58,988 nt of DNA from Candidatus Altiarchaeota archaeon (GTDB lineage Archaea > Altiarchaeota > Altiarchaeia > IMC4 > SCGC-AAA252-I15). Position 1 is the first letter of the stretch; the number at the start of each line of letters is the position of its first letter. The stretch lies in NCBI GenBank assembly GCA_043804895.1, contig JAZDIN010000011.1, forward strand, positions 1 through 58,988, read 5' to 3'. The notes under the pieces were generated by a model that made no database searches, was not told where the DNA came from, and saw only the letters and a program-made list of their open reading frames with translations. Shown one piece after another: positions 827-54,007 of this stretch. A program made the position numbers and the translations under genes.

Positions 827-1876
827 TTATGTCGTGTCCTGTGTTAAATGTTCTTTTGCATTTTCAATAGCTTTTATCGCCCTTCCCCTGTCAACTTCAT
901 TCAGTCCCCCGCGGGTCATCTGGTTTATGGTGTTCGCGAGTCCCATGATGACAACTTCCGGGCTTAAATTATCCTCCAGATACTTCGCCTGAAGTTTGTG
1001 TTCTCTCCCACTCTTTTCAATCACCCTGATGTCCGGGTAGCCTTTACCGTACATCAGGACTAATACTCCCTGGCCGTCCTTTATTTCAGCATTGTCCTTG
1101 CTGATAGGTTCAGCTTTGCTTATGTCTGGTTTCCTAATGTCGCCCTCTGCGACCATGGGCACTACTGCAACCGGCATGTACGCTCCCATCGCATTCCCCT
1201 CCAAAGGCGGGAATACGTAAATGCCATTCATTATGCCAATCAGGCTTAGGAGTCCCGGGTTCCTTATGACTCTCTCATTAAGGTCTGCGAATTCAGGGCT
1301 CTTAAAATCTATTTCACTCCTCATCCTGTCAATTGCACCCAGCCATTCTTTTGAACCAAACAGGTTGTAAACCCCCTTAAGCTCGTCAACAGTCCTGTTC
1401 ACCTCTTCAATCGTGCCATCCGTCCTAATTGAAGCATGGGAAAATGCAGCTGTTAGCCCCTCAACCACGACATCAGTTTTTATCCCGCTGACTTCCGTCC
1501 TATTACCCAACTCACGTTCACGTCCTTGGCCGTCAACCACCATGTAACTCATATTGTACTGTCTCCCATCACCATAAAGGAGTATTAATCCCTGCCCTTT
1601 TGGGGGTTTAAAGTCTAGAGTTTCGATAGGTTTAGCGTCCTCAACCTTCACACCCCTGGTCTTCTCATCTAAAAGGGGTGCTGTCGCTATCGGGACGCCC
1701 TTTTGGATTCCAAAATCCAGGAGGCCGCCGTTCACCAGGTTCTTTAGTTCATGATTTTCTGCAATCTCCCTGTTACCTCTGCCGAAGACGAGTTTGCTGT
1801 CTGATATGCTATCTCTAAGTCCTTCTAAAGCTTGATAAATATCTTTGGTATCAACTGGTCTCTCCCTAGTCGTCAT
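827..1876 (-). CDS. hypothetical protein with tandem duplicated domain
   Basis: 349-aa ORF, SD-like GAGGTAGG before ATG, two internally similar halves, no family recognised. Confidence 0.75.
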   Translation of the reverse strand: MTTRERPVDTKDIYQALEGLRDSISDSKLVFGRGNREIAENHELKNLVNGGLLDFGIQKGVPIATAPLLDEKTRGVKVEDAKPIETLDFKPPKGQGLILLYGDGRQYNMSYMVVDGQGRERELGNRTEVSGIKTDVVVEGLTAAFSHASIRTDGTIEEVNRTVDELKGVYNLFGSKEWLGAIDRMRSEIDFKSPEFADLNERVIRNPGLLSLIGIMNGIYVFPPLEGNAMGAYMPVAVVPMVAEGDIRKPDISKAEPISKDNAEIKDGQGVLVLMYGKGYPDIRVIEKSGREHKLQAKYLEDNLSPEVVIMGLANTINQMTRGGLNEVDRGRAIKAIENAKEHLTQDTT

Positions 1877-1879
1877 AAC

Positions 1880-1969
1880 CTACCTCTGTTTTAACCTCTC
1901 CAAGAGCGTGTCTAAAGCAATTACAAGAGGTCTATACATTTCTTCCACCCCATGATCATGTGGATTCAT
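1880..1969 (-). CDS. putative 29-aa small/leader protein (MNPHDHGVEEMYRPLVIALDTLLERLKQR)
   Basis: ATG 23 nt downstream of TATA-like TATTTAT; stop lies 3 nt before the next ATG. Confidence 0.4.
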   Translation of the reverse strand: MNPHDHGVEEMYRPLVIALDTLLERLKQR

Positions 1970-1999
1970 ATTAATCATTGTTCATCCAGAGAATAAATA
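1970..1999 (-). promoter_or_regulatory. promoter shared with the 29338 gene (TATTTAT-N-CTCTGGATGAACAAT)
   Basis: 22 of first 23 nt identical to 29308-29330, same spacing to start codon. Confidence 0.6.
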
Positions 2000-2084
2000 T
2001 TGTGTCTTTAATTTGTGGCTTTAATGCTACTACACGGACAATTATTAATATTCCCCTAACATATCTGTATCCAGGTGTTTTCCA

Positions 2085-2789
2085 ATGTTATACGAGCAGG
2101 ATCCTTACCTTAGGGAGTTCGACTCTAAGGTCAAGTCAGTGACAGATGGGAAGTACGTCGTCCTAGAGGATACATGCTTCTACCCGAATAGTGGCGGCCA
2201 GCCTCACGACACGGGCGTGCTGGTGAAGGATGGCGTCGAGTACAGGGTCGTGTTCGCTAAGAAGTTCGGTGGCGAGGTCAGCCATGAAATCGACCCGCAG
2301 GGTCTGGCTGTCGGTGCCAGCGTCCACGGCGTAATAGACTGGGAGCGTCGTTACATCCTCATGCGAAGCCACACTGCTGCTCACATGCTATCTGCAGTCA
2401 TAAATCAGGAGACTGGGGCTGACATCTCAGGCAACCAGCTTGACTTAGAGTACAGTCGAATCGACTTCAACCTCGAGGACTTCGACAGGGAGCGGGTGAA
2501 GGACTTTGAGAGGCTGGTGAACGAGGCTATCTCACGGGACATGCATGTGAAGGTTAGGCAGATTCCGAGGGAGGAGGCTTTGAAGGACACCTCTCTCTTC
2601 AGGTTGCTGAAGGGTTTCCCTGAGGGGGTGCAGGTGGTTAACGTCGTTGAAGTGGAAGGCTTTGACATGCAAGCCTGCGGAGGAACACACGTCAGAAACA
2701 CGAAAGAGATTGGCCCCCTAGAAGTATTCAAGGCCGAGAACAAGGGGAAGAACAACCGGAGGATGTATTTTAGGTTGAGGAAGTTGTGA
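2085..2789 (+). CDS. alaXM: alanyl-tRNA editing protein AlaX-M
   Basis: FYPNSGGQPHDTG, HTAAH and CGGTH zinc motifs, KGKNNRR C-terminus. Confidence 0.93.
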   Translation: MLYEQDPYLREFDSKVKSVTDGKYVVLEDTCFYPNSGGQPHDTGVLVKDGVEYRVVFAKKFGGEVSHEIDPQGLAVGASVHGVIDWERRYILMRSHTAAHMLSAVINQETGADISGNQLDLEYSRIDFNLEDFDRERVKDFERLVNEAISRDMHVKVRQIPREEALKDTSLFRLLKGFPEGVQVVNVVEVEGFDMQACGGTHVRNTKEIGPLEVFKAENKGKNNRRMYFRLRKL

Positions 2790-2825
2790 AGATTTTTATA
2801 CTAGGGTGTTTAATTAGTTTCTGCG

Positions 2826-3554
2826 ATGGTTGTCTTGAAAAAAAACTTGTTTGTTGTTCTTGCTGTCGTGGTTCTGCTTTCAGGTTGCGTTAAAATCCAG
2901 ATGCGGGAGGAGATAGGTCCGACCGGGTCTTCTGATATTACGATGACTATCGCGCCTGCCAACGATTCTGTGAAGCTGTGGGAGGAGGGCGATAACCCGT
3001 GCGACACGATGAACACCACCAACAGTAAGGTCACCGGCGTCACATGCAAATACGATGGGAAGAAGGTGACAGTCAAAGGCAAGTTCGACAGGGCCGCTGC
3101 GGGCGGGCTGACGATTACTGGCAGCAAATACCGGTTCGATCTGGTGGATGCGATGAAGGCTATGGATGAGAAGGAGGAGGGTGAGGAGGATAATCAGGTA
3201 GAGATGCCTAAAAACAAGACCCAGCTTAAGATGCTGAAAGATGCGGGGATGGCATACGATTACTACGTCAAGATGCCAGGGACTGTGACAAAGAAGTCCG
3301 GTGGCACAGTCCAGTTGGACGGCTCAATAAAGTTCGACCTCTTGGACCCCGACCTGCCTGATAAGCCGTACGTGGAATCCGACGCAGGGGTTCTGGGGTT
3401 ACTCGGCGGTGCAAAGACTGCAGCTGACTCCCCAACCAAGAAGTCCGGTGGCAAGTCTACTGGGAGTTCAAGCTCAAGCGGATGCTGTTGCACACCCGTT
3501 TTGACTGCTGTCCTCGCAGGATTGGGCGCAGCAGCGTCAAAATCATTCTATTAG
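2826..3554 (+). CDS. putative lipoprotein (LppM-like) with Cys-rich C-terminal hydrophobic anchor
   Basis: Lipobox LLSGC after hydrophobic signal; Ser/Gly linker then GCCCTP plus hydrophobic tail. Confidence 0.7.
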   Translation: MVVLKKNLFVVLAVVVLLSGCVKIQMREEIGPTGSSDITMTIAPANDSVKLWEEGDNPCDTMNTTNSKVTGVTCKYDGKKVTVKGKFDRAAAGGLTITGSKYRFDLVDAMKAMDEKEEGEEDNQVEMPKNKTQLKMLKDAGMAYDYYVKMPGTVTKKSGGTVQLDGSIKFDLLDPDLPDKPYVESDAGVLGLLGGAKTAADSPTKKSGGKSTGSSSSSGCCCTPVLTAVLAGLGAAASKSFY

Positions 3555-6501: not shown

Positions 6502-7752
6502 TCATATCATTCCAAGTCTTTTGCAGGCTTTAGCGAGCTTTTCTATGAACTCATCAAGGTCCTTTCTCGTGTGCGCTGCGGAAATCTGGACTCTTATCTC
6601 GTCCTTCCCTTTCGGCACGACAGGGTACGATATGTTCGTGATGAGCACTCCCTCATTGAACAGTTCGTCCACCAGCGCCCGTGTCTTGACAGGGTCTCCT
6701 ATCAGCACCGGCTGGATTGGGTGCTTGGAGTCGCATGAGAACTTCAGACCTAGCTTCGTAATCCGGCCTTTGAAGTACTCCATGTTGTCCCTTAGTTGGT
6801 CTAGCATCTTTTGCCCCTCCTTGGAGTCTATGAGGTTCAGCGACTCAAGAGATGCGCCTGCGCTCCCCGGAGGTATCGGGTTGGAGTATATGTAGGTCGC
6901 TGCCGATTCCCTCAGGTAATCCATAAGTATCCTGTCTCCTGTGACGTAGCCGCCGTCAACCCCAAGCCCCTTGCCCATGGTACCTATTAGGAGCGTGGAT
7001 TTGCCGTGGGTGACCTCCTCAGCCCCCCTGCCTGTCCCTAACGCACCAATACCATGAGCGTCGTCGACGATGGTTATTATTCCCTCCTCATATCCTGACT
7101 CCTCTTCAGAGACGACCTTCTGCATCTTGCCGAGGTCCTGATATTCGCCGAGCATGGAGAACACCCCGTCTGTGATGACGAGGGCCCTCTTGAACTTGCC
7201 TGCGTTCTCCTTAAGGACCCTCCTCAAATCCTCCAAGTCCATGTGCTTGAACACGGCCCTGCTCTCCTTCGGCAGCCCTGCGACGCGTATCCCGTCTATG
7301 ATGCTCCTGTGGTTCAGCTCGTCTGATACGACCAGCGCCTGGTCTGAGACGACGGAGTCCTTGCTCTGGCCTTTTATGAAGCAGTGTATGACCGCCATGT
7401 TGACCGCGAACGCTGACGAGAATATCATCGCATCCTCCCTCCCGTGGAATTGCGCTATCTTCTTCTCAAGGTCCTTGTGCACCTTAAGGGACCCTGATAT
7501 GAACCTGACTGCGCCCGGGCCTGTCCCGTACTTCTTAGACGCCTCCTCCTCTGCTTTCCTGAGCCTTTCGTTGAGGCGCAGTCCTAGGTAGTCGTTGGAG
7601 TTGAATATGGCGTACGGCTTCCCTGCTATTATCGCCTTCGGCGCGTAGCCTTCCTTCCTCTCAAAGCCTTCAATGATTTTCTCGTTCCTCTTTGACGTCT
7701 TGATGGCGTCAATCCTTGCCATCTCCTTTTGCAGTGTTTCTTTCAGTGTCAT
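6502..7752 (-). CDS. kbl: 2-amino-3-ketobutyrate CoA ligase (glycine C-acetyltransferase; class II PLP enzyme)
   Basis: SNDYLGL, VRFISG, NHRSIIDG, DDAHG, GTMGK; start reassigned to MTLKETL at 7752, just after the tdh stop. Confidence 0.85.
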   Translation of the reverse strand: MTLKETLQKEMARIDAIKTSKRNEKIIEGFERKEGYAPKAIIAGKPYAIFNSNDYLGLRLNERLRKAEEEASKKYGTGPGAVRFISGSLKVHKDLEKKIAQFHGREDAMIFSSAFAVNMAVIHCFIKGQSKDSVVSDQALVVSDELNHRSIIDGIRVAGLPKESRAVFKHMDLEDLRRVLKENAGKFKRALVITDGVFSMLGEYQDLGKMQKVVSEEESGYEEGIITIVDDAHGIGALGTGRGAEEVTHGKSTLLIGTMGKGLGVDGGYVTGDRILMDYLRESAATYIYSNPIPPGSAGASLESLNLIDSKEGQKMLDQLRDNMEYFKGRITKLGLKFSCDSKHPIQPVLIGDPVKTRALVDELFNEGVLITNISYPVVPKGKDEIRVQISAAHTRKDLDEFIEKLAKACKRLGMI

Positions 7753-8841: not shown

Positions 8842-8895
8842 GTTAGCTATAACTGTGCCGCTATATATAAGATACTAACGATATCTTATACTCTA

Positions 8896-10590
8896 ATGAA
8901 ATTTTACGGCAAATACAATCCGCGGGATAGGAAGGTCGCATACTTCTCATTTGAGGTGGGGCTGTCAGCTGAGATGCCAATGTACGCCGGCGGCCTTGGA
9001 ATTCTCGCAGGAGACACGATAAAGTCGTTCGCAGACCTTAAAGTCCCTGCTGTCGCGCTCTCGCTCCTAAACGAGAAAGGTTACTTCTACCAGGAGATTG
9101 ACGAGGACGGCAACCAGAAGGAGGTGCCTGTCAACTGGGACTTCAGGAAATACATGCAGCTTCTGCCTGAGAAGGTGACTGTAAGGCTTGAGGGCCGCGA
9201 CATTCTGCTTCAGGGCTGGGTTTGCGAAGTCAAGGGAATAAGCGGAGGCCTCGTGCCAGTAATATTCCTTGATTCGAACGTCGAGGGAAACAACGAGGAA
9301 GACCAAAGGCTAACGAGCTTCCTGTACGGCGGGGACAGGAGATACCGTCTAAAACAGGGAGCGCTTCTTGGCATAGGCGGCGTTAGGATGCTCCAGGCTC
9401 TAGGCCACGAGAACCTGTCCGCCTACCACATGAACGAAGGGCATTCCGCATTACTCACCCTCGAGCTCATGGGCCGGCACAACGGCGACTTGGACAAGGT
9501 CAGGGACCTTTGCGTCTTCACCACCCACACTCCAGTGCCTGAAGGCCATGATTCGTTCGACTTTAGCTTAGCGAAGAGCGTCCTTGCCGACTTCTGCGAC
9601 ATTGACTCGCTGAAACACAGTAACATAATCGACAAGTGGAACAAGCTTAATATGACCTACCTGGCGCTCTATCATTCGCGCTACATAAACGGCGTCGCTA
9701 AAAAACACGGTGAGGTAACGCAGAAGATGTTCCCAGGTTACAGCGTGGATTCCATAACCAACGGGATACACACCGCGACATGGGTTTCGGATTCGATGGC
9801 GCATGTCTTCGATAAGCACATACCCTTCTGGAAGAGCGACCCATATACCCTCAGGAACGCGCTGAACATCCCAAGAGGCGACCTTTGGGACGCCCACATG
9901 GGAGCTAAGAAGAAGTTATTGGACTTCGTGAACGAACACTATCATAAAAGTATGGAATACGATACGCTCACCATCGGTTTCGGCAGGCGCGCCACAGCCT
10001 ACAAAAGGGCTCACCTTATCTTCTCAGACACTGAAAGGCTGAAGAGGATTGTCGAAAAGGTAGGCAAAATACAGCTGATATTCGCAGGCAAAGCGCATCC
10101 CAGGGACGATAACGGGAAGGAAGCCATCCGCAACATATTCAAACACATAAAAAACATTGAAGGCTCGATAAAGACCGTCTACATGAAGAACTACGAAATG
10201 TACACAGCAAAACTCCTCATATCAGGCTGCGATGTCTGGCTGAACACCCCCAAAAGGCCGCTTGAGGCTTCCGGCACTTCTGGGATGAAGGCCGCAGCCA
10301 ACGGAGTCATCAACTTCTCAGTCCTAGACGGCTGGTGGCTTGAAGGCCACATCGAAGGACACACCGGCTGGAGCATCGGCCCAAGGCCAGTGGATGTTGA
10401 GGTGGAGACCGACGATTCAGCTGACATAAAGGACCTTTACAACAAGCTAGAGAAGAAGATAATCCCACTGTACTACAAGGACCGGGACTGGTGGACCGAG
10501 ATGATGGCGCAGAACATCGCGTTAAACGGTTCATTCTTCAACACCCACCGTATGGTTTCCCAATATGTGATGCAGGCGTACTTCCACTGA
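8896..10590 (+). CDS. glgP: alpha-glucan (glycogen/maltodextrin) phosphorylase
   Basis: YAGGLGILAGD, HMNEGH, FTTHTP, EASGTSGMK PLP-lysine motif. Confidence 0.95.
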   Translation: MKFYGKYNPRDRKVAYFSFEVGLSAEMPMYAGGLGILAGDTIKSFADLKVPAVALSLLNEKGYFYQEIDEDGNQKEVPVNWDFRKYMQLLPEKVTVRLEGRDILLQGWVCEVKGISGGLVPVIFLDSNVEGNNEEDQRLTSFLYGGDRRYRLKQGALLGIGGVRMLQALGHENLSAYHMNEGHSALLTLELMGRHNGDLDKVRDLCVFTTHTPVPEGHDSFDFSLAKSVLADFCDIDSLKHSNIIDKWNKLNMTYLALYHSRYINGVAKKHGEVTQKMFPGYSVDSITNGIHTATWVSDSMAHVFDKHIPFWKSDPYTLRNALNIPRGDLWDAHMGAKKKLLDFVNEHYHKSMEYDTLTIGFGRRATAYKRAHLIFSDTERLKRIVEKVGKIQLIFAGKAHPRDDNGKEAIRNIFKHIKNIEGSIKTVYMKNYEMYTAKLLISGCDVWLNTPKRPLEASGTSGMKAAANGVINFSVLDGWWLEGHIEGHTGWSIGPRPVDVEVETDDSADIKDLYNKLEKKIIPLYYKDRDWWTEMMAQNIALNGSFFNTHRMVSQYVMQAYFH

Positions 10591-34701: not shown

Positions 34702-36030
34702 ATGGAAGTAGATTTCGCCAACTCTCAGGCTCCATTGGATGCTGTCTGCGGCCGTCTCTCAGTGGAACTGGGGAGAATCCACAATCAACTCAGTAGAGGA
34801 TACCTATTCGAAAGCGACAAGAACTTGCCTGAGGATAAGAGGCAGGTGGTGGACGGCTACGTAACAGAAGACGGCACCCCCACATTCCAATCCTACAAAG
34901 CAGACATTAAGGCCGTCGTCAAATCCGCGGAGTACATCCGCAAAGCATACGGCCGTCCGAGCAACGTCGTCGTCATCGGCAACGGCGGCTCCATCACCGG
35001 AGCTGAGTCGTTCTATAATGCGTTGATAGAATACTCTAAACCCGGGACATACGCCGGCAGGGATTCGAGACTGTACGTAGTCGACAGTCAGGAGCCGGGG
35101 CCGATAGCGAGAATCAGAAGGGAATGTCCACTCGACGATACAGTAGTCCTTCCAATCAGCAAATCCGGGAATACGCAAAGCCTTGACGACGTGCTTGACG
35201 TCTTCATCAAATGGAAGTATAACCTCGCAGCTGTGACCACGAAAGGCGGCAAGGTTGGCAGACTCTACGGCCGAGTCAAGGAAGTCCTCTCCAAGCGTGG
35301 TTTGGACGCTGAGAAGCTGATAGTCGACCATCCTCCGATAGGCGGCAGATACACCGGACGGACTCCGGTCTCGACACTGCCGCTGGCCTTGCTTGGTATG
35401 AGCGAGAAACACCTGAAGGGATTGGACGACGGTGCGAAGAAGATGTACTCCCAGGTGAATCCGAAAGTCCAGTTCGACAGTAACCCTGCGTTGAAGCTCG
35501 CTGCTGCACTCCATTACCTTGAGTTGGAGAAAGGCTGCGCTGAGATATTCGCTCCCATGTACAGCCACGCCCTCGAAGGCTTCGCCCACCTGACGACTCA
35601 ACTACTCCACGAGAGCTCATGCAAACTCGGCCGCGGCCAGACGATACTCACGTCAGTCGGCCCCGAATGCCAGCACCACACTACTCAGAGGTTCTTCGGC
35701 GGCAGAAGAGACATGGCCGCAGTATTCTTCACAGTCGACCAGGACGATTCAGGCCTGAAGACCTCAACCGGAGTCCCGCTCGAGAAGGCCCTCCAGTTCG
35801 AGTATGAGGGCACCCGCGACGACGCGACGAAACAGGGAATACCTACCTTCACAGTAAAGATTGACGAGCTGACTCCAAAAGAAACCGGAGGCCTCCTCGC
35901 CTTCCTCCAATACGCATTCGGCGTCTACCCCTCACTCCTTCGGGACGTGAACCCCTTCGACCAACCTCAAGTCGAAAACAGCAAACACATCAGCCGAGAA
36001 CTAAGGGAAAAATACCTAAAAAGAAAGTAG
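34702..36030 (+). CDS. pgi: glucose-6-phosphate isomerase
   Basis: GNGGS, SKSGNT, IGGRY, ESSCK, NPFDQPQVENSK. Confidence 0.88.
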   Translation: MEVDFANSQAPLDAVCGRLSVELGRIHNQLSRGYLFESDKNLPEDKRQVVDGYVTEDGTPTFQSYKADIKAVVKSAEYIRKAYGRPSNVVVIGNGGSITGAESFYNALIEYSKPGTYAGRDSRLYVVDSQEPGPIARIRRECPLDDTVVLPISKSGNTQSLDDVLDVFIKWKYNLAAVTTKGGKVGRLYGRVKEVLSKRGLDAEKLIVDHPPIGGRYTGRTPVSTLPLALLGMSEKHLKGLDDGAKKMYSQVNPKVQFDSNPALKLAAALHYLELEKGCAEIFAPMYSHALEGFAHLTTQLLHESSCKLGRGQTILTSVGPECQHHTTQRFFGGRRDMAAVFFTVDQDDSGLKTSTGVPLEKALQFEYEGTRDDATKQGIPTFTVKIDELTPKETGGLLAFLQYAFGVYPSLLRDVNPFDQPQVENSKHISRELREKYLKRK

Positions 36031-36190
36031 TGCCTAACTGTGGGTTTGCACATAAATTATAAGAAGTAGTAGATAACAACCCAACTAGAGGATTAAGCGA
36101 ACTTTTTTGCTTAATATTTGTTAAGTGAAATTGTGGACTTCAGTCACAATTAAATCATATGTAATCAAATAACAAAAAGAGGTTAAGAGT

Positions 36191-36982
36191 ATGAGAAAGA
36201 TCACAAAATTTGGAATTGGAATAATAGTGGTTGTGGTCGTGGTTGCTGGCTTATGGATGTACCATACTCATGGACTTTATGAGAACACGTATAGCAGCGA
36301 ATATGGCTATCGTGTTACAATAGGAACCGATTCAGTTCTGCACAACATCACACTATACTTACCCTTACCTGTATTGGGGGAAAAATCGGAAGTAGGTGGT
36401 GAAATCAATGCCGGAAACGCCCTAAAATCCGATGGGTGGGATTGCAGCATTGTAGAAACAGAATATGGAAAGATGCTTAAAATCAGTGCAAAGAAGATGG
36501 TACCCGAGTTTTATTCTTTTCCCATGCTCCTAGAACCTGGAGAAAAGCCCAAGGAACAAATATCGGGGAAAATCTCAGACACATCTTCAAAGGAAACACC
36601 GGTGTTAATGCCTAAGGAGCTTTCAGTAAGGGTGCGTGCAGATCATGACATAAACACGAAAAATCCAATTGGAAATGAGCCCCTACTGTCTCCGAAATAC
36701 AACTTAACTCGCTCTACTTATGAACTCCCATATCTGAAAGGACGGACTCCACCAAACTACTATGAATACGAGAGTCGTATTTATGCAGATTATGCGACAT
36801 CTGCCAATGCTAACGTTTCAATTTATATTGAAACCGAGGGAAGGAACAGCTGGTGGGTTTATGGATGGTCTGGCAATAATTATCGTGATCGGATAGAACT
36901 AACCTTCACTGGAGAACAGCATGGGTGGTATGTTGCATCAGGAAAACTTGTTGAGGGTGAGGGTCGCTATGGTTGGATGTAA
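36191..36982 (+). CDS. cassette-encoded membrane-anchored/secreted hypothetical protein
   Basis: N-terminal TM, SD AAGAGGT, AT-rich codon use unlike neighbours. Confidence 0.8.
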   Translation: MRKITKFGIGIIVVVVVVAGLWMYHTHGLYENTYSSEYGYRVTIGTDSVLHNITLYLPLPVLGEKSEVGGEINAGNALKSDGWDCSIVETEYGKMLKISAKKMVPEFYSFPMLLEPGEKPKEQISGKISDTSSKETPVLMPKELSVRVRADHDINTKNPIGNEPLLSPKYNLTRSTYELPYLKGRTPPNYYEYESRIYADYATSANANVSIYIETEGRNSWWVYGWSGNNYRDRIELTFTGEQHGWYVASGKLVEGEGRYGWM

Positions 36983-37065
36983 TCGGATTTGTAATGTGGT
37001 TGTGTTTAATGGGGGCTCTACCTCCACGACTCTCGCCAACTTCGTTGGCTAGGTGCTATCGCACT

Positions 37066-37148
37066 CACTTAACGGCAGACATACGGCTACGCTGCGCTCA
37101 AATGCTCGGCTTCGCCTCGCACTTCACATGTCTACAGCCGTTTAAGTG
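37066..37148 (+). repeat. attC-like recombination site
   Basis: RYYYAAC (ACTTAAC) ... GTTTAAGTG; stems AACGGC/GCCGTT and AGACAT/ATGTCT with a 3-nt bulge; internal GGC-TTC-GCC hairpin. Confidence 0.7.
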
Positions 37149-37244
37149 AATCTTAGATTTAATGTTCAAACTCACCTAACTGTGGGTTGCGCTTAATGGG
37201 CTTATCCACTATATTTATATATCCAAATATAGCTATATACTGTC

Positions 37245-38321
37245 ATGGCCGTTGAGATGGAAGTGGTCGAGGGGGATAGAAAGCTTAGCCTTTTTGACCG
37301 CTACCTTACCGTGTGGGTTTTCCTGTGCATGATTCTCGGAACAGCGATCGGCTATTTCTTCCCGAAGGCGGCCGCCACGTTAGGCGGATTCGAAATAGCG
37401 AACGTGTCCATCCCCGTCGCCGTCGTCCTCCTAGCCATGATGTACCCGATAATGCTGAAGATAAGCCTGAAGGAAATCGTGAAAGTCAAAAGGAATGCAA
37501 ATCCTCTGTGGCTTACTCTGGTGGTAAACTGGGCCATAAAGCCCTTTACCATGGCGCTTATCGCGTGGTTTTTCATGAGAGTGCTATACGCTTGGATAAT
37601 CCCCGTTGACCTCCAAAGCGAATATATTGCGGGAATGATTCTGCTTGGTCTAGCACCTTGCACTGCAATGGTCTTAGTCTGGACGTATCTGGCGAGGGCG
37701 AACATCGACTATGCTCTGGTGCAGGTCTCAGTCAACGACCTGGTCATACTCGTCTTATTCGCCCCACTGGGGAAATTCCTGCTTGGAATCACCACCGACT
37801 TTCCAGTACCCTTCGCCACGATATTCTTTTCCGTCCTCTTCTACGTGGCCATCCCCCTGACGTTGGCAGGAGTCACGCGCTATCTAGCCATCAAAATGAA
37901 GGGAGTAGAATGGTTCGAAAAGAAGTTCATAGAGAAGATTTCCTGGGTGACCCCAGCAGGCCTTCTGATAACGCTTGTGCTGATATTCATCTTCCAGGGG
38001 GATAAGGTAATCAATTACCCGTTGCATATCGTCTTGATTGCGATACCACTGATAATCCAAACATACCTCATATTCTACATCGGCTACTTCGGAGCCAGAA
38101 AGTTGAGGATTCCTTTCACGGAGGCTGCGCCGTCGGCATTCATCGGAGCGAGCAACTTCTTCGAGTTGTCTGTCGCCATAGCATTGATCCTATTCGGCAT
38201 GAACTCCGGAGCGACCCTGGCGACTGTGGTCGGAGTGCTTGTGGAGGTACCGGTCATGCTCTCTCTAGTTGGAATAATGACGAGAAACAAGGCAAAGTTC
38301 GAGTTCAATAACACAAGATGA
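37245..38321 (+). CDS. acr3: ACR3-family arsenite efflux transporter
   Basis: FDRYLTVW, MMYP, NWAIKPF, APCTAMV, ASNFFEL, VEVPVML. Confidence 0.95.
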   Translation: MAVEMEVVEGDRKLSLFDRYLTVWVFLCMILGTAIGYFFPKAAATLGGFEIANVSIPVAVVLLAMMYPIMLKISLKEIVKVKRNANPLWLTLVVNWAIKPFTMALIAWFFMRVLYAWIIPVDLQSEYIAGMILLGLAPCTAMVLVWTYLARANIDYALVQVSVNDLVILVLFAPLGKFLLGITTDFPVPFATIFFSVLFYVAIPLTLAGVTRYLAIKMKGVEWFEKKFIEKISWVTPAGLLITLVLIFIFQGDKVINYPLHIVLIAIPLIIQTYLIFYIGYFGARKLRIPFTEAAPSAFIGASNFFELSVAIALILFGMNSGATLATVVGVLVEVPVMLSLVGIMTRNKAKFEFNNTR

Positions 38322-38584
38322 ATCCAGAACGGCAAGTGAAGGTGTTTAAGGCGTTGGGGGACCCGACGAGGCTTAAGATAATGAAGATGCTTTTGAAGTG
38401 CGAGAAATGCGTCTGCGAGATAATCCCGGCCACCGGGAAAAGCCAGCCTACCACGTCGGCGCACCTTAAGATACTCCATGAGGCAGGGCTCTTGAAATCC
38501 CGCAAAGAAGGACTTAGCGTATACTACCGGCTCGCAGACGAGTCAGTGAAGGAACTCATCAAAGCAGCCGAAAAAATCAAGTGA
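38318..38584 (+). CDS. arsR: ArsR/SmtB transcriptional repressor
   Basis: FKALGDPTRL, CVCE, SQPTTSAHL. Confidence 0.93.
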   Translation: MNPERQVKVFKALGDPTRLKIMKMLLKCEKCVCEIIPATGKSQPTTSAHLKILHEAGLLKSRKEGLSVYYRLADESVKELIKAAEKIK

Positions 38585-38589
38585 TTAGG

Positions 38590-39336
38590 ATGAAAAAAGA
38601 AGACGTCAAAAAAATTGTCAAAGAAGGCTACGGGAAAATAGCCGAAACAGGAGGATGCTGCAGTAGTTGCGACTGCAACCAAACAACCAACAAGGAAATA
38701 GCGAAGTCGATAGGCTATTCCGATGAGGAAACGCAGACGGCCCCGGACGCCAACCTCGGTCTAGGATGCGGCAACCCAACGGCTATAGCCACTATAACGA
38801 AGGGAAGTACAGTCTTGGATTTGGGCTCCGGAGCAGGCTTCGACTGCTTCCTGGCCGCTAAAAAAGTCGGCAAAACCGGTAAGGTAATCGGCGTAGACAT
38901 GACTGAGGAGATGGTGGAGAAGGCCAAGGAAAACGCCAAAAAATACAGGTACAACAATGTAGAATTCAGGCTGGGCGACATAGAGGCGCTGCCCGTTGAA
39001 GATAACTCGGTAGACTTCATAATCAGCAACTGCGTAATCAACCTAGCCCCAGACAAATCGAAAGTTTTCAAGGAAGCCTACAGGGTACTGCGAAAAGGGG
39101 GCAAGTTGCTAGTCTCAGATATAGTGTTACTAAAAAAGCTAACCCAAGAACAAAAAGACGATTATACTCTTCTCGTGAGTTGTGTGAGCGGTGCCGTAAT
39201 CAAAGAGGATTATCTGAAGATGATTGAGGACGCAGGATTCCACGCAGAGGTGAAATCAGAGGACAAGGACATAAGCGCAAGACAATACGGCGGACTGCCA
39301 ATTGAGAGCATCAAAGTGGAGGCTGTAAAGCACTGA
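38590..39336 (+). CDS. arsM: arsenite S-adenosylmethionine methyltransferase
   Basis: N-terminal CC, LGLGCGNP, DLGSGAG, SNCVINL, CVSGA. Confidence 0.93.
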   Translation: MKKEDVKKIVKEGYGKIAETGGCCSSCDCNQTTNKEIAKSIGYSDEETQTAPDANLGLGCGNPTAIATITKGSTVLDLGSGAGFDCFLAAKKVGKTGKVIGVDMTEEMVEKAKENAKKYRYNNVEFRLGDIEALPVEDNSVDFIISNCVINLAPDKSKVFKEAYRVLRKGGKLLVSDIVLLKKLTQEQKDDYTLLVSCVSGAVIKEDYLKMIEDAGFHAEVKSEDKDISARQYGGLPIESIKVEAVKH

Positions 39337-52355: not shown

Positions 52356-52540
52356 GGGAGGATATCAGAATATAAGGTAAAAAGCCCCCCACATACCAGC
52401 AGAAAAATTCAACTACAGGTTCTTCGAGCCAGACGGGATAGGTGTTTATGGTTCGTATCCTAGTTAGCCTATGCTAGTAGGTGGTATAATAAGTATATAA
52501 CTGTATATATCCTAGTATATACTAAGGTTAATGTGATACT

Positions 52541-52690
52541 ATGGTCAAAGTCCAAGAAGTTAACGGGAGAATTTTCGTGACAATACCCCTGGAGAAAGCC
52601 AAACGGCTTAAACTGAAGAAAGGCGACTTAGTTGATTGGGACTTCAACGAACGAGGACATTTAAAGCTTAGCAGAGTGGAGGTGAAGTAA
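52541..52690 (+). CDS. AbrB/MazE/SpoVT-family DNA-binding protein (49 aa)
   Basis: Not in ORF track: MVKVQEVNGRIFVTIPLEKAKRLKLKKGDLVDWDFNERGHLKLSRVEVK. Confidence 0.8.
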   Translation: MVKVQEVNGRIFVTIPLEKAKRLKLKKGDLVDWDFNERGHLKLSRVEVK

Positions 52691-52691
52691 G

Positions 52692-52874
52692 ATGATAAGT
52701 AGATTCTTCCTAAGAGACAAATCCTTCCGATTACTGTCTAAAATGATGAGTGTAGAACACGCTACAGTAATAGCAGACATGAAGCTACTGGTTAAATTCC
52801 TACTGAAACCCGAAGCAATAACCCCCCTAATGCTCAAAGGCGAAGTCATACTAGACGAAGCTAAGACAGAGTAG
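52692..52874 (+). CDS. small hypothetical protein
   Basis: SD GGAGGTG upstream, coupled to the AbrB-like gene. Confidence 0.55.
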   Translation: MISRFFLRDKSFRLLSKMMSVEHATVIADMKLLVKFLLKPEAITPLMLKGEVILDEAKTE

Positions 52875-52924
52875 GGCTCAGACGCAAAGAACTTAAGAAG
52901 GGAGAAATATGTGGGGTGTTAGAT

Positions 52925-53161
52925 ATGAAACAAAAAGAGAATCGAGAAATAAGCATACCAACAAGCACATCAGCAAACCTGACAGTTCGGATGGACAACT
53001 ACCTGAGGAATCACCTTGGGGGCAAGATTCATCCAGAATTGGCGACCGTAGCAGTAAAATACACCGTGCTAGAGCATAAGATGAACAACTACTTAAGGGA
53101 TCATCTTGAGGCCAAGACCTGGAAAGAATTAATGACCCCAGATCCAAAGGCGAAGTCATAA
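52925..53161 (+). CDS. small hypothetical protein with internal repeat, possibly frameshifted
   Basis: MDNYLRNHL / MNNYLRDHL repeat 30 codons apart. Confidence 0.5.
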   Translation: MKQKENREISIPTSTSANLTVRMDNYLRNHLGGKIHPELATVAVKYTVLEHKMNNYLRDHLEAKTWKELMTPDPKAKS

Positions 53162-53182
53162 TTGAAGAAACAAAGACCGAAT

Positions 53183-53368
53183 ATGGGTGAGGAAAAAATA
53201 GGGGGTTTTAAGCCCATAATCTCAGGGAATAAATTGAGTGGTTTGGTGGCTATTGACGCGGACTTCCTGAAGCAACTTTTAGGGAAGAAGATAGAAGGTT
53301 TGTTCAAAAATAGGGGGATGCTAAACATGGGTCTTGAACCAAACCATTTTTTAACTCAGGTCTTATAG
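53183..53368 (+). CDS. small hypothetical protein
   Basis: Short ORF continuing the island operon; weak support. Confidence 0.3.
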   Translation: MGEEKIGGFKPIISGNKLSGLVAIDADFLKQLLGKKIEGLFKNRGMLNMGLEPNHFLTQVL

Positions 53369-53823
53369 AGACGATATATCTGAGTCGCATAGAATAGTGA
53401 TACCAAATTCATAACGATTGCAGCATATAAGAAAATACTACTGCTAATTGAGTATAAATTACACTCCGCGTTTTTATCAGACATTCCTTTAGTTATTTGG
53501 GTAATGTTCATACGTGTTTCATCTATTTTTGTAAATCCTTTTTCCCAGAAAACAGACATTTTTACCCCATAATCTATCCCTATCTTATCATCATCATCGA
53601 AGATAGCAGAAGTATTTTTTACCGCAAACAATGTTACACCCTCATAATACATTAAAAGAGAAGAGATATAGTCTTGGAATAATTGGTCTTTGATATCACG
53701 CTCCTGGTCTACATGACTATAGCAATCATCCTCCCAGTTTTTAAGAACAGTACTTATTACTAACAATAATGCAACTATGCTAGTCATCACAACGAGCACC
53801 ACGTTTGATCTTTCTTTTTCCAT
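53356..53823 (-). CDS. AT-rich two-TM membrane protein (island cargo)
   Basis: N- and C-terminal hydrophobic helices; AT-rich. Confidence 0.65.
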   Translation of the reverse strand: MEKERSNVVLVVMTSIVALLLVISTVLKNWEDDCYSHVDQERDIKDQLFQDYISSLLMYYEGVTLFAVKNTSAIFDDDDKIGIDYGVKMSVFWEKGFTKIDETRMNITQITKGMSDKNAECNLYSISSSIFLYAAIVMNLVSLFYATQIYRLYKT

Positions 53824-53885
53824 AGACTGACGGAGCTCCGTTGAAATCCTTAAATAAAGTTGGCGTTTCGCATCTGTGGGGTAAG

Positions 53886-53959
53886 CGAGCCCGACGGGAT
53901 TCGAACCCGCGACTCCTCGATTAAAAGTCGAGTGCTCTACCAGACTGAGCTACGGGCCC
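53886..53959 (-). tRNA. tRNA-Lys (UUU), no encoded CCA
   Basis: GGGCCCG/CGGGCTC acceptor stem, TAGCTCAGTCTGGTAGAGC D arm, CTCGA-CTTTTAA-TCGAG anticodon arm, GGTTCGAATCC T arm. Confidence 0.96.
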
Positions 53960-54007
53960 TTTTTAAGGGGGTGTATTTGTTGTTTGCTGGTTATTTTTTT
54001 TATTTCT

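Follow-up and report, generated by a model that had tools for sequence, protein, structure and literature searches.

The DNA analysed here (the window) is the whole stretch of 58,988 nucleotides of contig JAZDIN010000011.1 from a Candidatus Altiarchaeota archaeon (assembly GCA_043804895.1), which is contig C11 of a metagenome-assembled genome (MAG) of 1.58 Mb, in 71 contigs and 88.7% complete, referred to below as G000. G000 encodes TBP, a protein that among the control genomes was detected in the four archaea only. Positions 36042–37174 hold a 1,133-bp unit whose GC content is 0.417, as compared to 0.51 for the genome and to 0.55 and 0.49 for its two flanks; over 36001–37000 the value is 0.401, versus about 0.5 around. 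A previous sequence-only reading of the window had proposed an archaeal integron-like unit at this position, with an attI-like site, a single gene cassette and an attC site, and without integrase. This inner layer of integron-type site-specific recombination is well supported by the comparisons given below, while that first account did not include the inverted repeats at the ends, the duplication that flanks them or the second copy of the unit. We propose that 36042–37174 is probably a non-autonomous mobile unit, in which the integron-type layer is enclosed in an outer layer that, judging from its anatomy, would be transposon-like. The features of the unit are listed from left to right; G-numbers stand for genomes (61 genomes of the class were scanned, G000 included), C-numbers for contigs, L-numbers for loci and X1–X4 for sequencing runs with Logan contigs.

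36033–36041, no strand: left copy of the 9-bp flanking direct repeat CCTAACTGT, a 9/9 match outside the inverted repeats; the identity continues to 14 nt, until 36046
36042–36064, plus strand: left terminal inverted repeat, with core GGGTTTGCACAT at 36042–36053; the imperfect repeat reaches about 24 nt
36054–36108, plus strand: platform interior, common to C41 and L036, containing TATAAGAAGTA and one ATAACAACCCAACTAG unit
36109–36131, plus strand: attI-like core GCTTAATATTTG/TTAAGTGAAAT (the slash marks the crossover, placed by inference between 36120 and 36121), so named from 4 other archaeal MAGs and G014, and adjoining a recombinase gene in L025/L033
36121–37141, plus strand: single gene cassette, from TTAAGTG to the G/T of the attC right core; GC 0.42 versus 0.51 for the genome
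36191–36982, plus strand: cargo open reading frame (ORF) of 263 aa, with a predicted N-terminal membrane helix followed by a beta-rich domain
37023–37073, plus strand: conserved module of about 50 nt, which precedes and includes the left core R'' (TCACTTAAC, 37065–37073)
37065–37149, plus strand: attC hairpin, with R'' at 37065–37073, 5' spacer at 37074–37076, L'' at 37077–37085, variable loop at 37086–37124, L' at 37125–37133 and 3' spacer at 37134–37139
37140–37149, plus strand: attC right core R' GTTTAAGTGA, with one extra T
37151–37174, minus strand: right terminal inverted repeat TCTTAGATTTAATGTTCAAACTCA; the homology with C41 stops at 37174
37175–37183, no strand: right copy of the 9-bp flanking direct repeat CCTAACTGT, a 9/9 match

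The attC hairpin and the gene cassette

The 83-nt imperfect palindrome that had been described downstream of the ORF is present and runs from CACTTAAC at 37066–37073 to GTTTAAGTG at 37140–37148. As had been suggested, the bottom strand was folded as DNA, and it gives a hairpin of −16.9 kcal/mol with a z score of −2.41, 5/200 shuffles being as good. An Rfam search of the window (Rfam 15) returned tRNA only and no family for the hairpin. A covariance model (R1) was built from an alignment of five sites of this family itself, for which the RNAalifold consensus displays an R box and an L box, with 8/19 pairs covarying. Model R1 gives 106 bits to the window site and 72.6 bits to a site on contig C41 (C41:8868–8984), finds nothing beyond these two in the own genome at E ≤ 1, and detects the attC family in 23/61 class genomes (including G000), with up to 16 sites per genome. 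The window holds one attC and the whole genome two, on different contigs, where a cluster of attC sites lacking integrases (CALIN) is defined by at least two within less than 4 kb.

When 36 sites are aligned, 86.3% of the cells are paired, as compared to 22.5–40% with the partners slid by 1–3 columns; pairing reaches 90% in the R box and 95% in the L box, and 8/9 L-box pairs change on both sides, although these pairing counts lean towards structure because the alignment of the 36 sites was made by fitting to the model. AAC and GTT do not vary in 35–36 of the sites, the R box retains ..TAAC/GTTA.., and the short helix that separates the two boxes has a pairing of only 48.5%, as expected of an unpaired central spacer. 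The spacer is asymmetric (3–4 nt on the 5' arm in 35/36 sites, 6–7 nt on the 3' arm in 34/36), the loop measures 29–59 nt, and no single-base bulges were seen in the L box among the 36 sites. The elements of an attC are thus all found, namely R'' (RYYYAAC) and R' (GTTRRRY) as inverse cores, an L box that pairs, a spacer that does not, and a variable loop, and the covarying R and L boxes uphold the identification of the palindrome as an attC. The extra T that had been pointed out in the right core is real: it is a 1-nt insertion in the R' of the window site, seen in 1/36 family members and located at the presumed crossover point, and it may be the scar of an imprecise recombination, an inactivating mutation or an assembly error.

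The conserved region is not limited to the palindrome. Segment 37023–37073, which consists of a small GC-rich hairpin and R'', occurs in numerous distinct cassettes of other samples: in runs X3 and X4, the matching contigs align over this segment alone, diverge before 37023–37028 and after 37073, and reach summed depths of up to about 48–66. Many contigs break at 37073 because the sequence beyond R'' varies. These matches suggest that the conserved part of this attC class reaches upstream of R''. No other copy of the module was found in G000.

The upstream core GTTAAGTG lies at 36120–36127 as first described, and its complementarity to the left core of the attC amounts to a perfect 9-nt inverted pair (36120–36128 with 37065–37073), which a repeat search of the window also returned. 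The same search revealed a direct pair, TTAAGTGAA, at 36121 and 37142, and an exact 14-nt direct repeat, CCTAACTGTGGGTT, at 36033 and 37175, which brackets the region. Short cores alone are not rare, with 9 copies of TCACTTAAC on both strands of the genome versus about 12 expected by its length, 5/9 of which fall in the two units (window and C41). Their arrangement exceeds chance, since the architecture recurs on C41, the hairpin is supported both by its score with R1 and by the bottom-strand fold, and the 14-mer CCTAACTGTGGGTT is found twice in the window with ≤2 mismatches versus 0.27 expected (at least two in 4/100 shuffles).

That the region between the cores is a single integrated cassette, whose homologues should sit in cassette arrays, is borne out by locus L035. 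Bases 71–1045 of L035 match window positions 36120–37073 at 87% nucleotide identity, and this homology has its left edge at the G of GTTAAGTG (36120, G/TTAAGTG) and its right edge at the end of R'' (37073). L035 is an array of three attCs in which the cassette copy is flanked by an attC on both sides, the order being an attC ending in ...GCC-G/TTAAGTG, the cassette, its own attC (TCACTTAAC...AAAC-G/TTATATG), and a next cassette that begins with TTATATG and ends in an attC with the left core TCATATAAC. Such edges at the core are those predicted by an attI x attC or attC x attC crossover at G/TT. The first bases of the cassette are complementary to its own R'' not only in the window, where the match is perfect, but also in 2 further L035 cassettes. 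The homology of the window with L037 and L038 begins at 36119. The window cassette is therefore seen in three states, at an attI (window), on the same platform with another flank (L036) and in an array (L035), and we take this comparison of sequences as direct evidence of cassette mobility among these uncultured archaea.

The body of the window attC (37088–37150) is 87% identical to L035:19–80, which belongs to the attC upstream, and not downstream, of the same cassette. An exchange of attC bodies at R'', with a circularly permuted cassette, was considered and not pressed, as this body type (L'' GGACATAC...) recurs in unrelated members of the family.

The cargo ORF (36191–36982), which does lie between the cores in an AT-rich region as the sequence-only reading stated, is intact and has a dN/dS of 0.24 versus L035 and of 0.41 versus L036; from these comparisons it appears to be under purifying selection. 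The protein has 62 homologues, among which the named ones come mostly from anaerobic methanotrophic archaea (ANME), Methanosarcinales, Methanococcoides and Archaeoglobus, and some of which are fused to a Yip1 domain (PF04893); relatives are encoded at 13 metagenome loci. No Pfam or NCBIfam family was matched by the ORF. The AlphaFold model (mean predicted local distance difference test score of 82.8) displays an N-terminal helix at residues 2–33 followed by a beta-rich domain. A Foldseek search of this model against the PDB gave no match at E ≤ 0.001, and the VIA-align wide search returned assorted beta-sandwich domains with a best Z of 6.7, a value common among unrelated folds. On the basis of the model, the cargo is read as a predicted membrane-anchored surface protein. 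In loci L038–L043, cargo homologues with 62–66% identity are located in a flank that is conserved among these loci, and have about 60 nt of 3' untranslated sequence in common with the cassette; their homology to the window nonetheless begins at a core-like site, GTTGAGG, and these loci may represent cassettes that became fixed long ago, or else the chromosomal origin of the cassette.

The attI-like site and its associated recombinases

Segment 36109–36131 is regarded as attI-like because a matching site adjoins a tyrosine recombinase gene in another archaeal MAG. The 23-nt pattern GCTTAATNNTTGTTAAGTGAAAT, with 21 specified bases, is shared with 4 MAGs from other archaeal lineages (an uncultured archaeon, a Woesearchaeota, an 'archaeon' and an Aenigmatarchaeota), and also with G014, a genome of the same family; this sharing across distant archaeal lineages is to be compared with an estimate of about 0.3 expected by chance. 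On the 3' side of GAAAT, all copies of the attI diverge into different, mostly AT-rich genes. Upstream of the core, G014 has a host-type gene, and L026 and L028 seemingly likewise, by eye only. In G061, a tyrosine recombinase of 269 aa is encoded divergently from the attI core, with 78 nt between the core and its start codon, and in L027 the core stands beside a truncated remnant of a recombinase gene of the G061 type. The arrangement of an attI next to a recombinase is thus seen in a relative (G061) and not in the window. The palindrome ATTAAGC (36092–36098)-N10-GCTTAAT (36109–36115), which had been proposed to be the attI-like element, is present, and its right arm belongs to the conserved attI core; its left arm falls outside this core and is kept only in the three platform copies, so that the proposal stands for one arm only. 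Scans of viral contigs with the attI pattern and with the left-end pattern gave no match. In G014, the attI core (G014:C11, L006 about 1500–3043) is followed by a long AT-rich gene that is DUF262/GmrSD-like by eye, and this gene, so judged, suggests that defence genes travel as cassettes in this system.

The absence of intI from the window holds: there are 0 matches to the tyrosine recombinase family PF00589 in the window, and 0 in the own genome, not even a XerA, while the family was found in all 14 control genomes and in 4 other genomes searched alongside. Thus, from the genome-wide search for an intI and more attC sites that the sequence-only reading had put forward, only the second attC on C41 emerged. 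Absence of a recombinase from the organism is not established because the MAG is 88.7% complete, and the recombinase of G000 is probably in the unassembled 11%.

The attI-adjacent recombinase of G061 reaches 209 bits on NCBIfam NF040815, 'XerA_Arch / integron integrase' (cut-off 220), and 189 bits, in two pieces, on TIGR02249, 'integron integrase' (cut-off 265). When compared to solved structures, it aligns end to end with XerA (5hxy, 1.7e-39), while only chain residues 47–177 and 238–309 of IntI4 (2a3v) were aligned, such that about 60 IntI4 residues, including the IntI-specific domain, face about 15 residues of the query. Homologues of the recombinase are found in 5/5 class genomes examined and contain no large insertion, since spans of 774–798 nt cover 244–252 query residues; in G026 (a single contig), one of these homologues and a short cassette bearing an attC of the family are in divergent orientation. 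From these alignments, the recombinases beside this attI/attC family appear to be XerA-like and devoid of the IntI-specific domain. An integron integrase with that domain was not found next to the attI, and 'integron-like' is an apt wording for this reason. According to the IntegronFinder definition of an integron integrase, which combines PF00589 with the IntI domain, the G061-type enzyme is not a canonical one.

Outer ends, further copies and origin of the unit

A DNA search of the own genome returned a 33-nt match to the right end of the unit on contig C41, where a second copy, at about 8850–9634 on the minus strand, has the same architecture of left end, attI, hairpin and right end. The order in C41 is GGGTTTGCACAT, a left region about 82% identical to that of the window, ATTAAGCG...CGCTTAAT-TGTT-GTTAAGTGAAAT, a gene still richer in AT than that of the window (GC 0.34), TCACTTAAC, a hairpin of different sequence, and GTTAAGTGAATCTTAGAGTTAATGTGCAAACCC. 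The GC content of this second unit is 0.369, versus 0.51 for the genome, so that both units look foreign in composition, and its cargo is a different gene for a putative deaminase-fold protein of 154 aa, whose best NCBIfam match is a TadA-type deaminase, below cut-off. By BLAST, the edges common to the window and C41 are 36042 on the left and 37174 on the right.

The two ends of the window unit are inverted repeats, with 19/24 positions identical to the reverse complement of the other end (4/1000 shuffles as good), and those of the C41 unit are identical at 13/13 positions (0/1000 shuffles as good). Each unit is immediately bordered, beyond these ends, by a 9-bp direct repeat without mismatch (9/9), which reads CCTAACTGT for the window and AGAATTAGG for C41. 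The genome was scanned for pairs of inverted-repeat-like ends, with ≤2 mismatches per arm and a distance of 80–6000 bp; among the 12 pairs obtained, the window and C41 have a 9/9 flanking repeat, while the other ten have 2–6/9. Terminal inverted repeats and a flanking duplication that differs between copies are the hallmarks of a miniature inverted-repeat transposable element (MITE). The target is not random, since CCTAACTGT and AGAATTAGG are alike when one of them is reverse-complemented. Both insertions are intergenic and each lies directly 3' of a stop codon.

A third context is provided by L036, in which the match to the window begins exactly at 36042 and continues at 90–98% identity to the end of the ORF, while the left flank is unrelated; Logan contigs of runs X1 and X2 carry this L036 form. 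At L036:1316–1395, a 16-nt unit, ATAACAACCAAACTAG, is present five times in tandem, and it occurs once in the window.

Among the 61 class genomes, the end motif CCTAAnnnTGGGnTTGCACATAAA is found in the own genus only, three times in G000 and once in G002, and the right end only in G000, twice. A metagenome scan with the right-end pattern gave no match, and the terminal motifs were not found at 28 attC loci from other class genomes. The platform is thus younger and narrower in distribution than the cassette system it hosts, since the ends are confined to a genus while the attC family is class-wide. A solo left-junction motif of 31–32 nt (GTAGTG-CCTAAnnnT-GGGyTTGCACATAAAyT) is found at C35:40677–40707 and at about 7557–7585 of G002:C23 (L007), with no attI, cassette or right end beside it. 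These solo motifs may be solo ends, unoccupied attachment (att) sites or relics. That the left-junction motif is a general host regulatory motif was rejected, as it occurs in only 2/61 class genomes, of one genus.

We propose that the unit was assembled in two steps. A platform of about 125 bp without cassette, made of the left inverted repeat, about 55 nt of interior, the attI and the right inverted repeat, would be comparable in size and shape to a MITE and would have inserted between a PGI-like gene and an ars operon with an 8–9-bp target duplication (CCTAACTG(T)). It would be moved by a transposase acting in trans, as with a MITE or a mobile insertion cassette, with a preferred target of approximately CCTAAYTN, and would have landed at a minimum of 2 places in G000, each copy with a different cassette. 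The attI-like site (GCTTAATATTTG/TTAAGTGAAAT) would have received one circular cassette (TTAAGTG, ORF, attC) by attI x attC recombination at G/TT. The enzyme would be a XerA-like tyrosine recombinase provided in trans, since the unit encodes none and the assembled genome yielded none. The homology edges, the repeats, the covarying attC, the attI beside a recombinase gene in another genome and the cassette copy within another array are observed; the acting enzymes, the order of events (platform first, cassette second) and the present activity of either layer are what we infer.

Several observations weigh against this explanation. On the side of the inner layer, the attC model derives from the family itself and not from IntegronFinder or HattCI, the extra T may have disabled the window attC, and the recombinase beside the attI elsewhere is devoid of the IntI-specific domain, so that canonical integron chemistry is an assumption for this system. 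On the side of the outer layer, the L036 sequence leaves that of the window directly after the stop codon, so that a third right end was not recovered, and the solo motifs have no cargo beside them. No empty target site was recovered, for want of synteny in relatives (the PGI-like gene and that of ACR3 are non-adjacent in G001, G006 and G007); none of the Logan contigs of 4 runs bridges the insertion or displays an excision joint, contigs being unable to show rare variants. No autonomous element with matching inverted repeats was found in G000, and DDE transposases of IS4/5, IS256 and IS1595, the only three families tried, gave no match, in a type of assembly (MAG) that often loses repeats. 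Likewise, no cognate element with the same ends was found in the 61 class genomes or in viral contigs, public collections having been scanned with exact patterns only.

The flanking repeats themselves count against transposition as well, and they bring in the alternative that survives best. The repeats of the two copies are alike (CCTAACTGT, CCTAATTCT), as is that of the solo motif (CCTAACTCT), and in the window the identity runs over 14 nt, into sequence that resembles the end of the element: the right flank continues as GGGTTGCGCTTA, which is similar to GGGTTTGCACAT. With respect to these two features, site-specific integration fits as well as target-specific transposition. The whole unit could then have been integrated by a tyrosine recombinase at an attachment site without any transposase, the 9–14-nt repeat being the att core, the inverted repeats being the recombinase-binding arms of an attP site, and the solo motifs of C35 and G002 being unoccupied or hybrid att sites. 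The C35 solo site is indeed 97% identical over 31 nt to the left junction of the window, including 5 nt outside the repeat, and tyrosine recombinases are the only enzymes seen in this system elsewhere. However, in C41 the repeat is only 9 nt long and the flanks are unlike the ends, and the interior of C41 is inverted relative to the repeat orientation when compared to the window, which an asymmetric core should forbid. Furthermore, the spacing between the arms of a tyrosine recombinase site is usually 6–8 nt, and the spacer of 9–10 nt observed here exceeds it. We consider this alternative unlikely, although it deserves to be kept in mind.

A second alternative is that the unit is a sedentary and decayed remnant of a larger chromosomal integron, i.e. 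a CALIN reduced to one cassette, whose end repeats are incidental. Most of the reported archaeal integrons are indeed CALINs without integrase (PMC9668308), the attC has a unique 1-nt insertion at the crossover, and no recombinase was found in the genome. In contrast, two copies on different contigs have identical outer edges and an individual, perfect duplication of 9 bp, L036 as a third context starts from the same base, and the ends are confined to one genus while the attC family spans the class, which makes a remnant of this kind highly improbable. Finally, an orphan gene followed by a terminator-like hairpin, with chance matches to the cores and no recombination element at all, can hardly be upheld: 8–9-nt cores are common (9 TCACTTAAC versus about 12 expected) and no Rfam family matches the hairpin, but this reading is already contradicted by the 23-nt attI pattern in distant archaeal lineages (versus about 0.3 expected), by the cassette edges at the cores in arrays and by the covariation over 36 family members.

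Transposition of the platform in trans, followed by deposit of a cassette, is therefore the explanation that we retain. Its boldest form is that the attI rides on a transposable 'mobile landing pad' of about 125 bp, devoid of integrase and transposase, which would seed new chromosomal sites for the deposit of single cassettes by an integrase acting in trans; we put this forward tentatively, as a possibility well worth considering.

As to the surroundings, the left neighbour of the unit is the PGI-like gene (34702–36030), and on its right is an ars-type operon (37245–39336) which encodes a SBF/ACR3-type transporter, an ArsR-family regulator and a S-adenosylmethionine (SAM) methyltransferase. 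The 5' region of this operon, at about 37210–37247, matches unrelated contigs in runs X1 and X2 and may be a conserved promoter/operator. Another AT-rich patch, with a GC content of 0.39–0.45, is found at 52500–54000 beside tRNA-Lys(UUU) (53885–53959), and may be an insertion hot spot.

Relation to known integrons and mobile elements

Integrons were said in the sequence-only reading to have been reported only recently in archaea, and the publication does date from 2022: archaeal integrons, mostly CALINs, were described together with a semi-conserved putative attI across phyla (Ghaly et al., Sci Adv, PMC9668308). The window unit has in common with them a folded attC with RYYYAAC/GTTRRRY cores that bound cassettes, a putative attI with a G/TT insertion point, the lack of an integrase at most loci and an origin in MAGs of uncultured archaea. 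That survey required an IntI or at least two attCs within 4 kb and excluded singletons, such that the window unit would go uncounted; its six archaeal IntIs carry the IntI-specific domain, while the recombinases beside the present attI/attC family lack it. In the passages of that paper considered here, Altiarchaeota are mentioned only in relation to the rooting of a tree, and no transposon-like ends or target duplication are mentioned, in contrast to what is seen in the window unit. Single-attC sites without integrase are also known from IntegronFinder 2, which by default no longer reports CALINs with one attC (10.1101/2022.02.28.482270). Such sites likewise have one attC, one ORF and no integrase nearby, while the window unit has in addition an attI, defined outer ends and a duplication. 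Because surveys count only integrase genes or clusters of at least two attCs, single-cassette units go uncounted.

For the outer layer, the closest functional parallels are the bacterial class 1 integrons and those flanked by MITEs. Class 1 integrons are mostly defective Tn402 transposons with IRi/IRt, and a few, in Acinetobacter and Enterobacter, are flanked by MITEs or integron mobilization units (IMUs) with target duplications (PMC3575428). They have in common with the window unit a platform bounded by inverted repeats, a target duplication, the lack of a functional transposase of their own and a presumed movement in trans, but they are several kb long, keep intI1 and are bounded by two MITE copies of 288–439 bp or by the 25-bp IRi/IRt (PMC3575428). 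The window unit consists of about 125 bp and one cassette, is located in an archaeon, has no integrase, and its inverted repeats abut the attI and the last attC.

Mobile insertion cassettes (MICs, e.g. MIC231 of the Bacillus cereus group) are transposase-less elements with inverted repeats like those of insertion sequences, a target duplication and a passenger gene, all of which the window unit has as well. The passenger of a MIC is fixed, whereas that of the window unit sits in an integron-type site, differs between copies and would be exchangeable independently of transposition. In our literature search, we met with no account of an attI platform that lacks an integrase and has inverted repeats at its ends, a result on which the supplements of PMC9668308 may bear. 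The transposon-like shell, the second copy with a different cargo, the comparative cassette edges and the XerA-like recombinases associated with the system are new.

The locus shows a complete small unit, with docking site, one cassette and attC, at base resolution, and the docking site could itself be mobile, as the inverted repeats and the duplicated target suggest. A mobile docking site would parallel the mobilisation of class 1 integrons, on a far smaller scale and without an integrase. If XerA-like enzymes devoid of the IntI-specific domain act in this system, capture of the integron type would do without the very domain by which integron integrases are defined. If the proposed explanation is true, the enzyme, the docking site and the cargo of an integron would be on independently moving parts in an archaeon.

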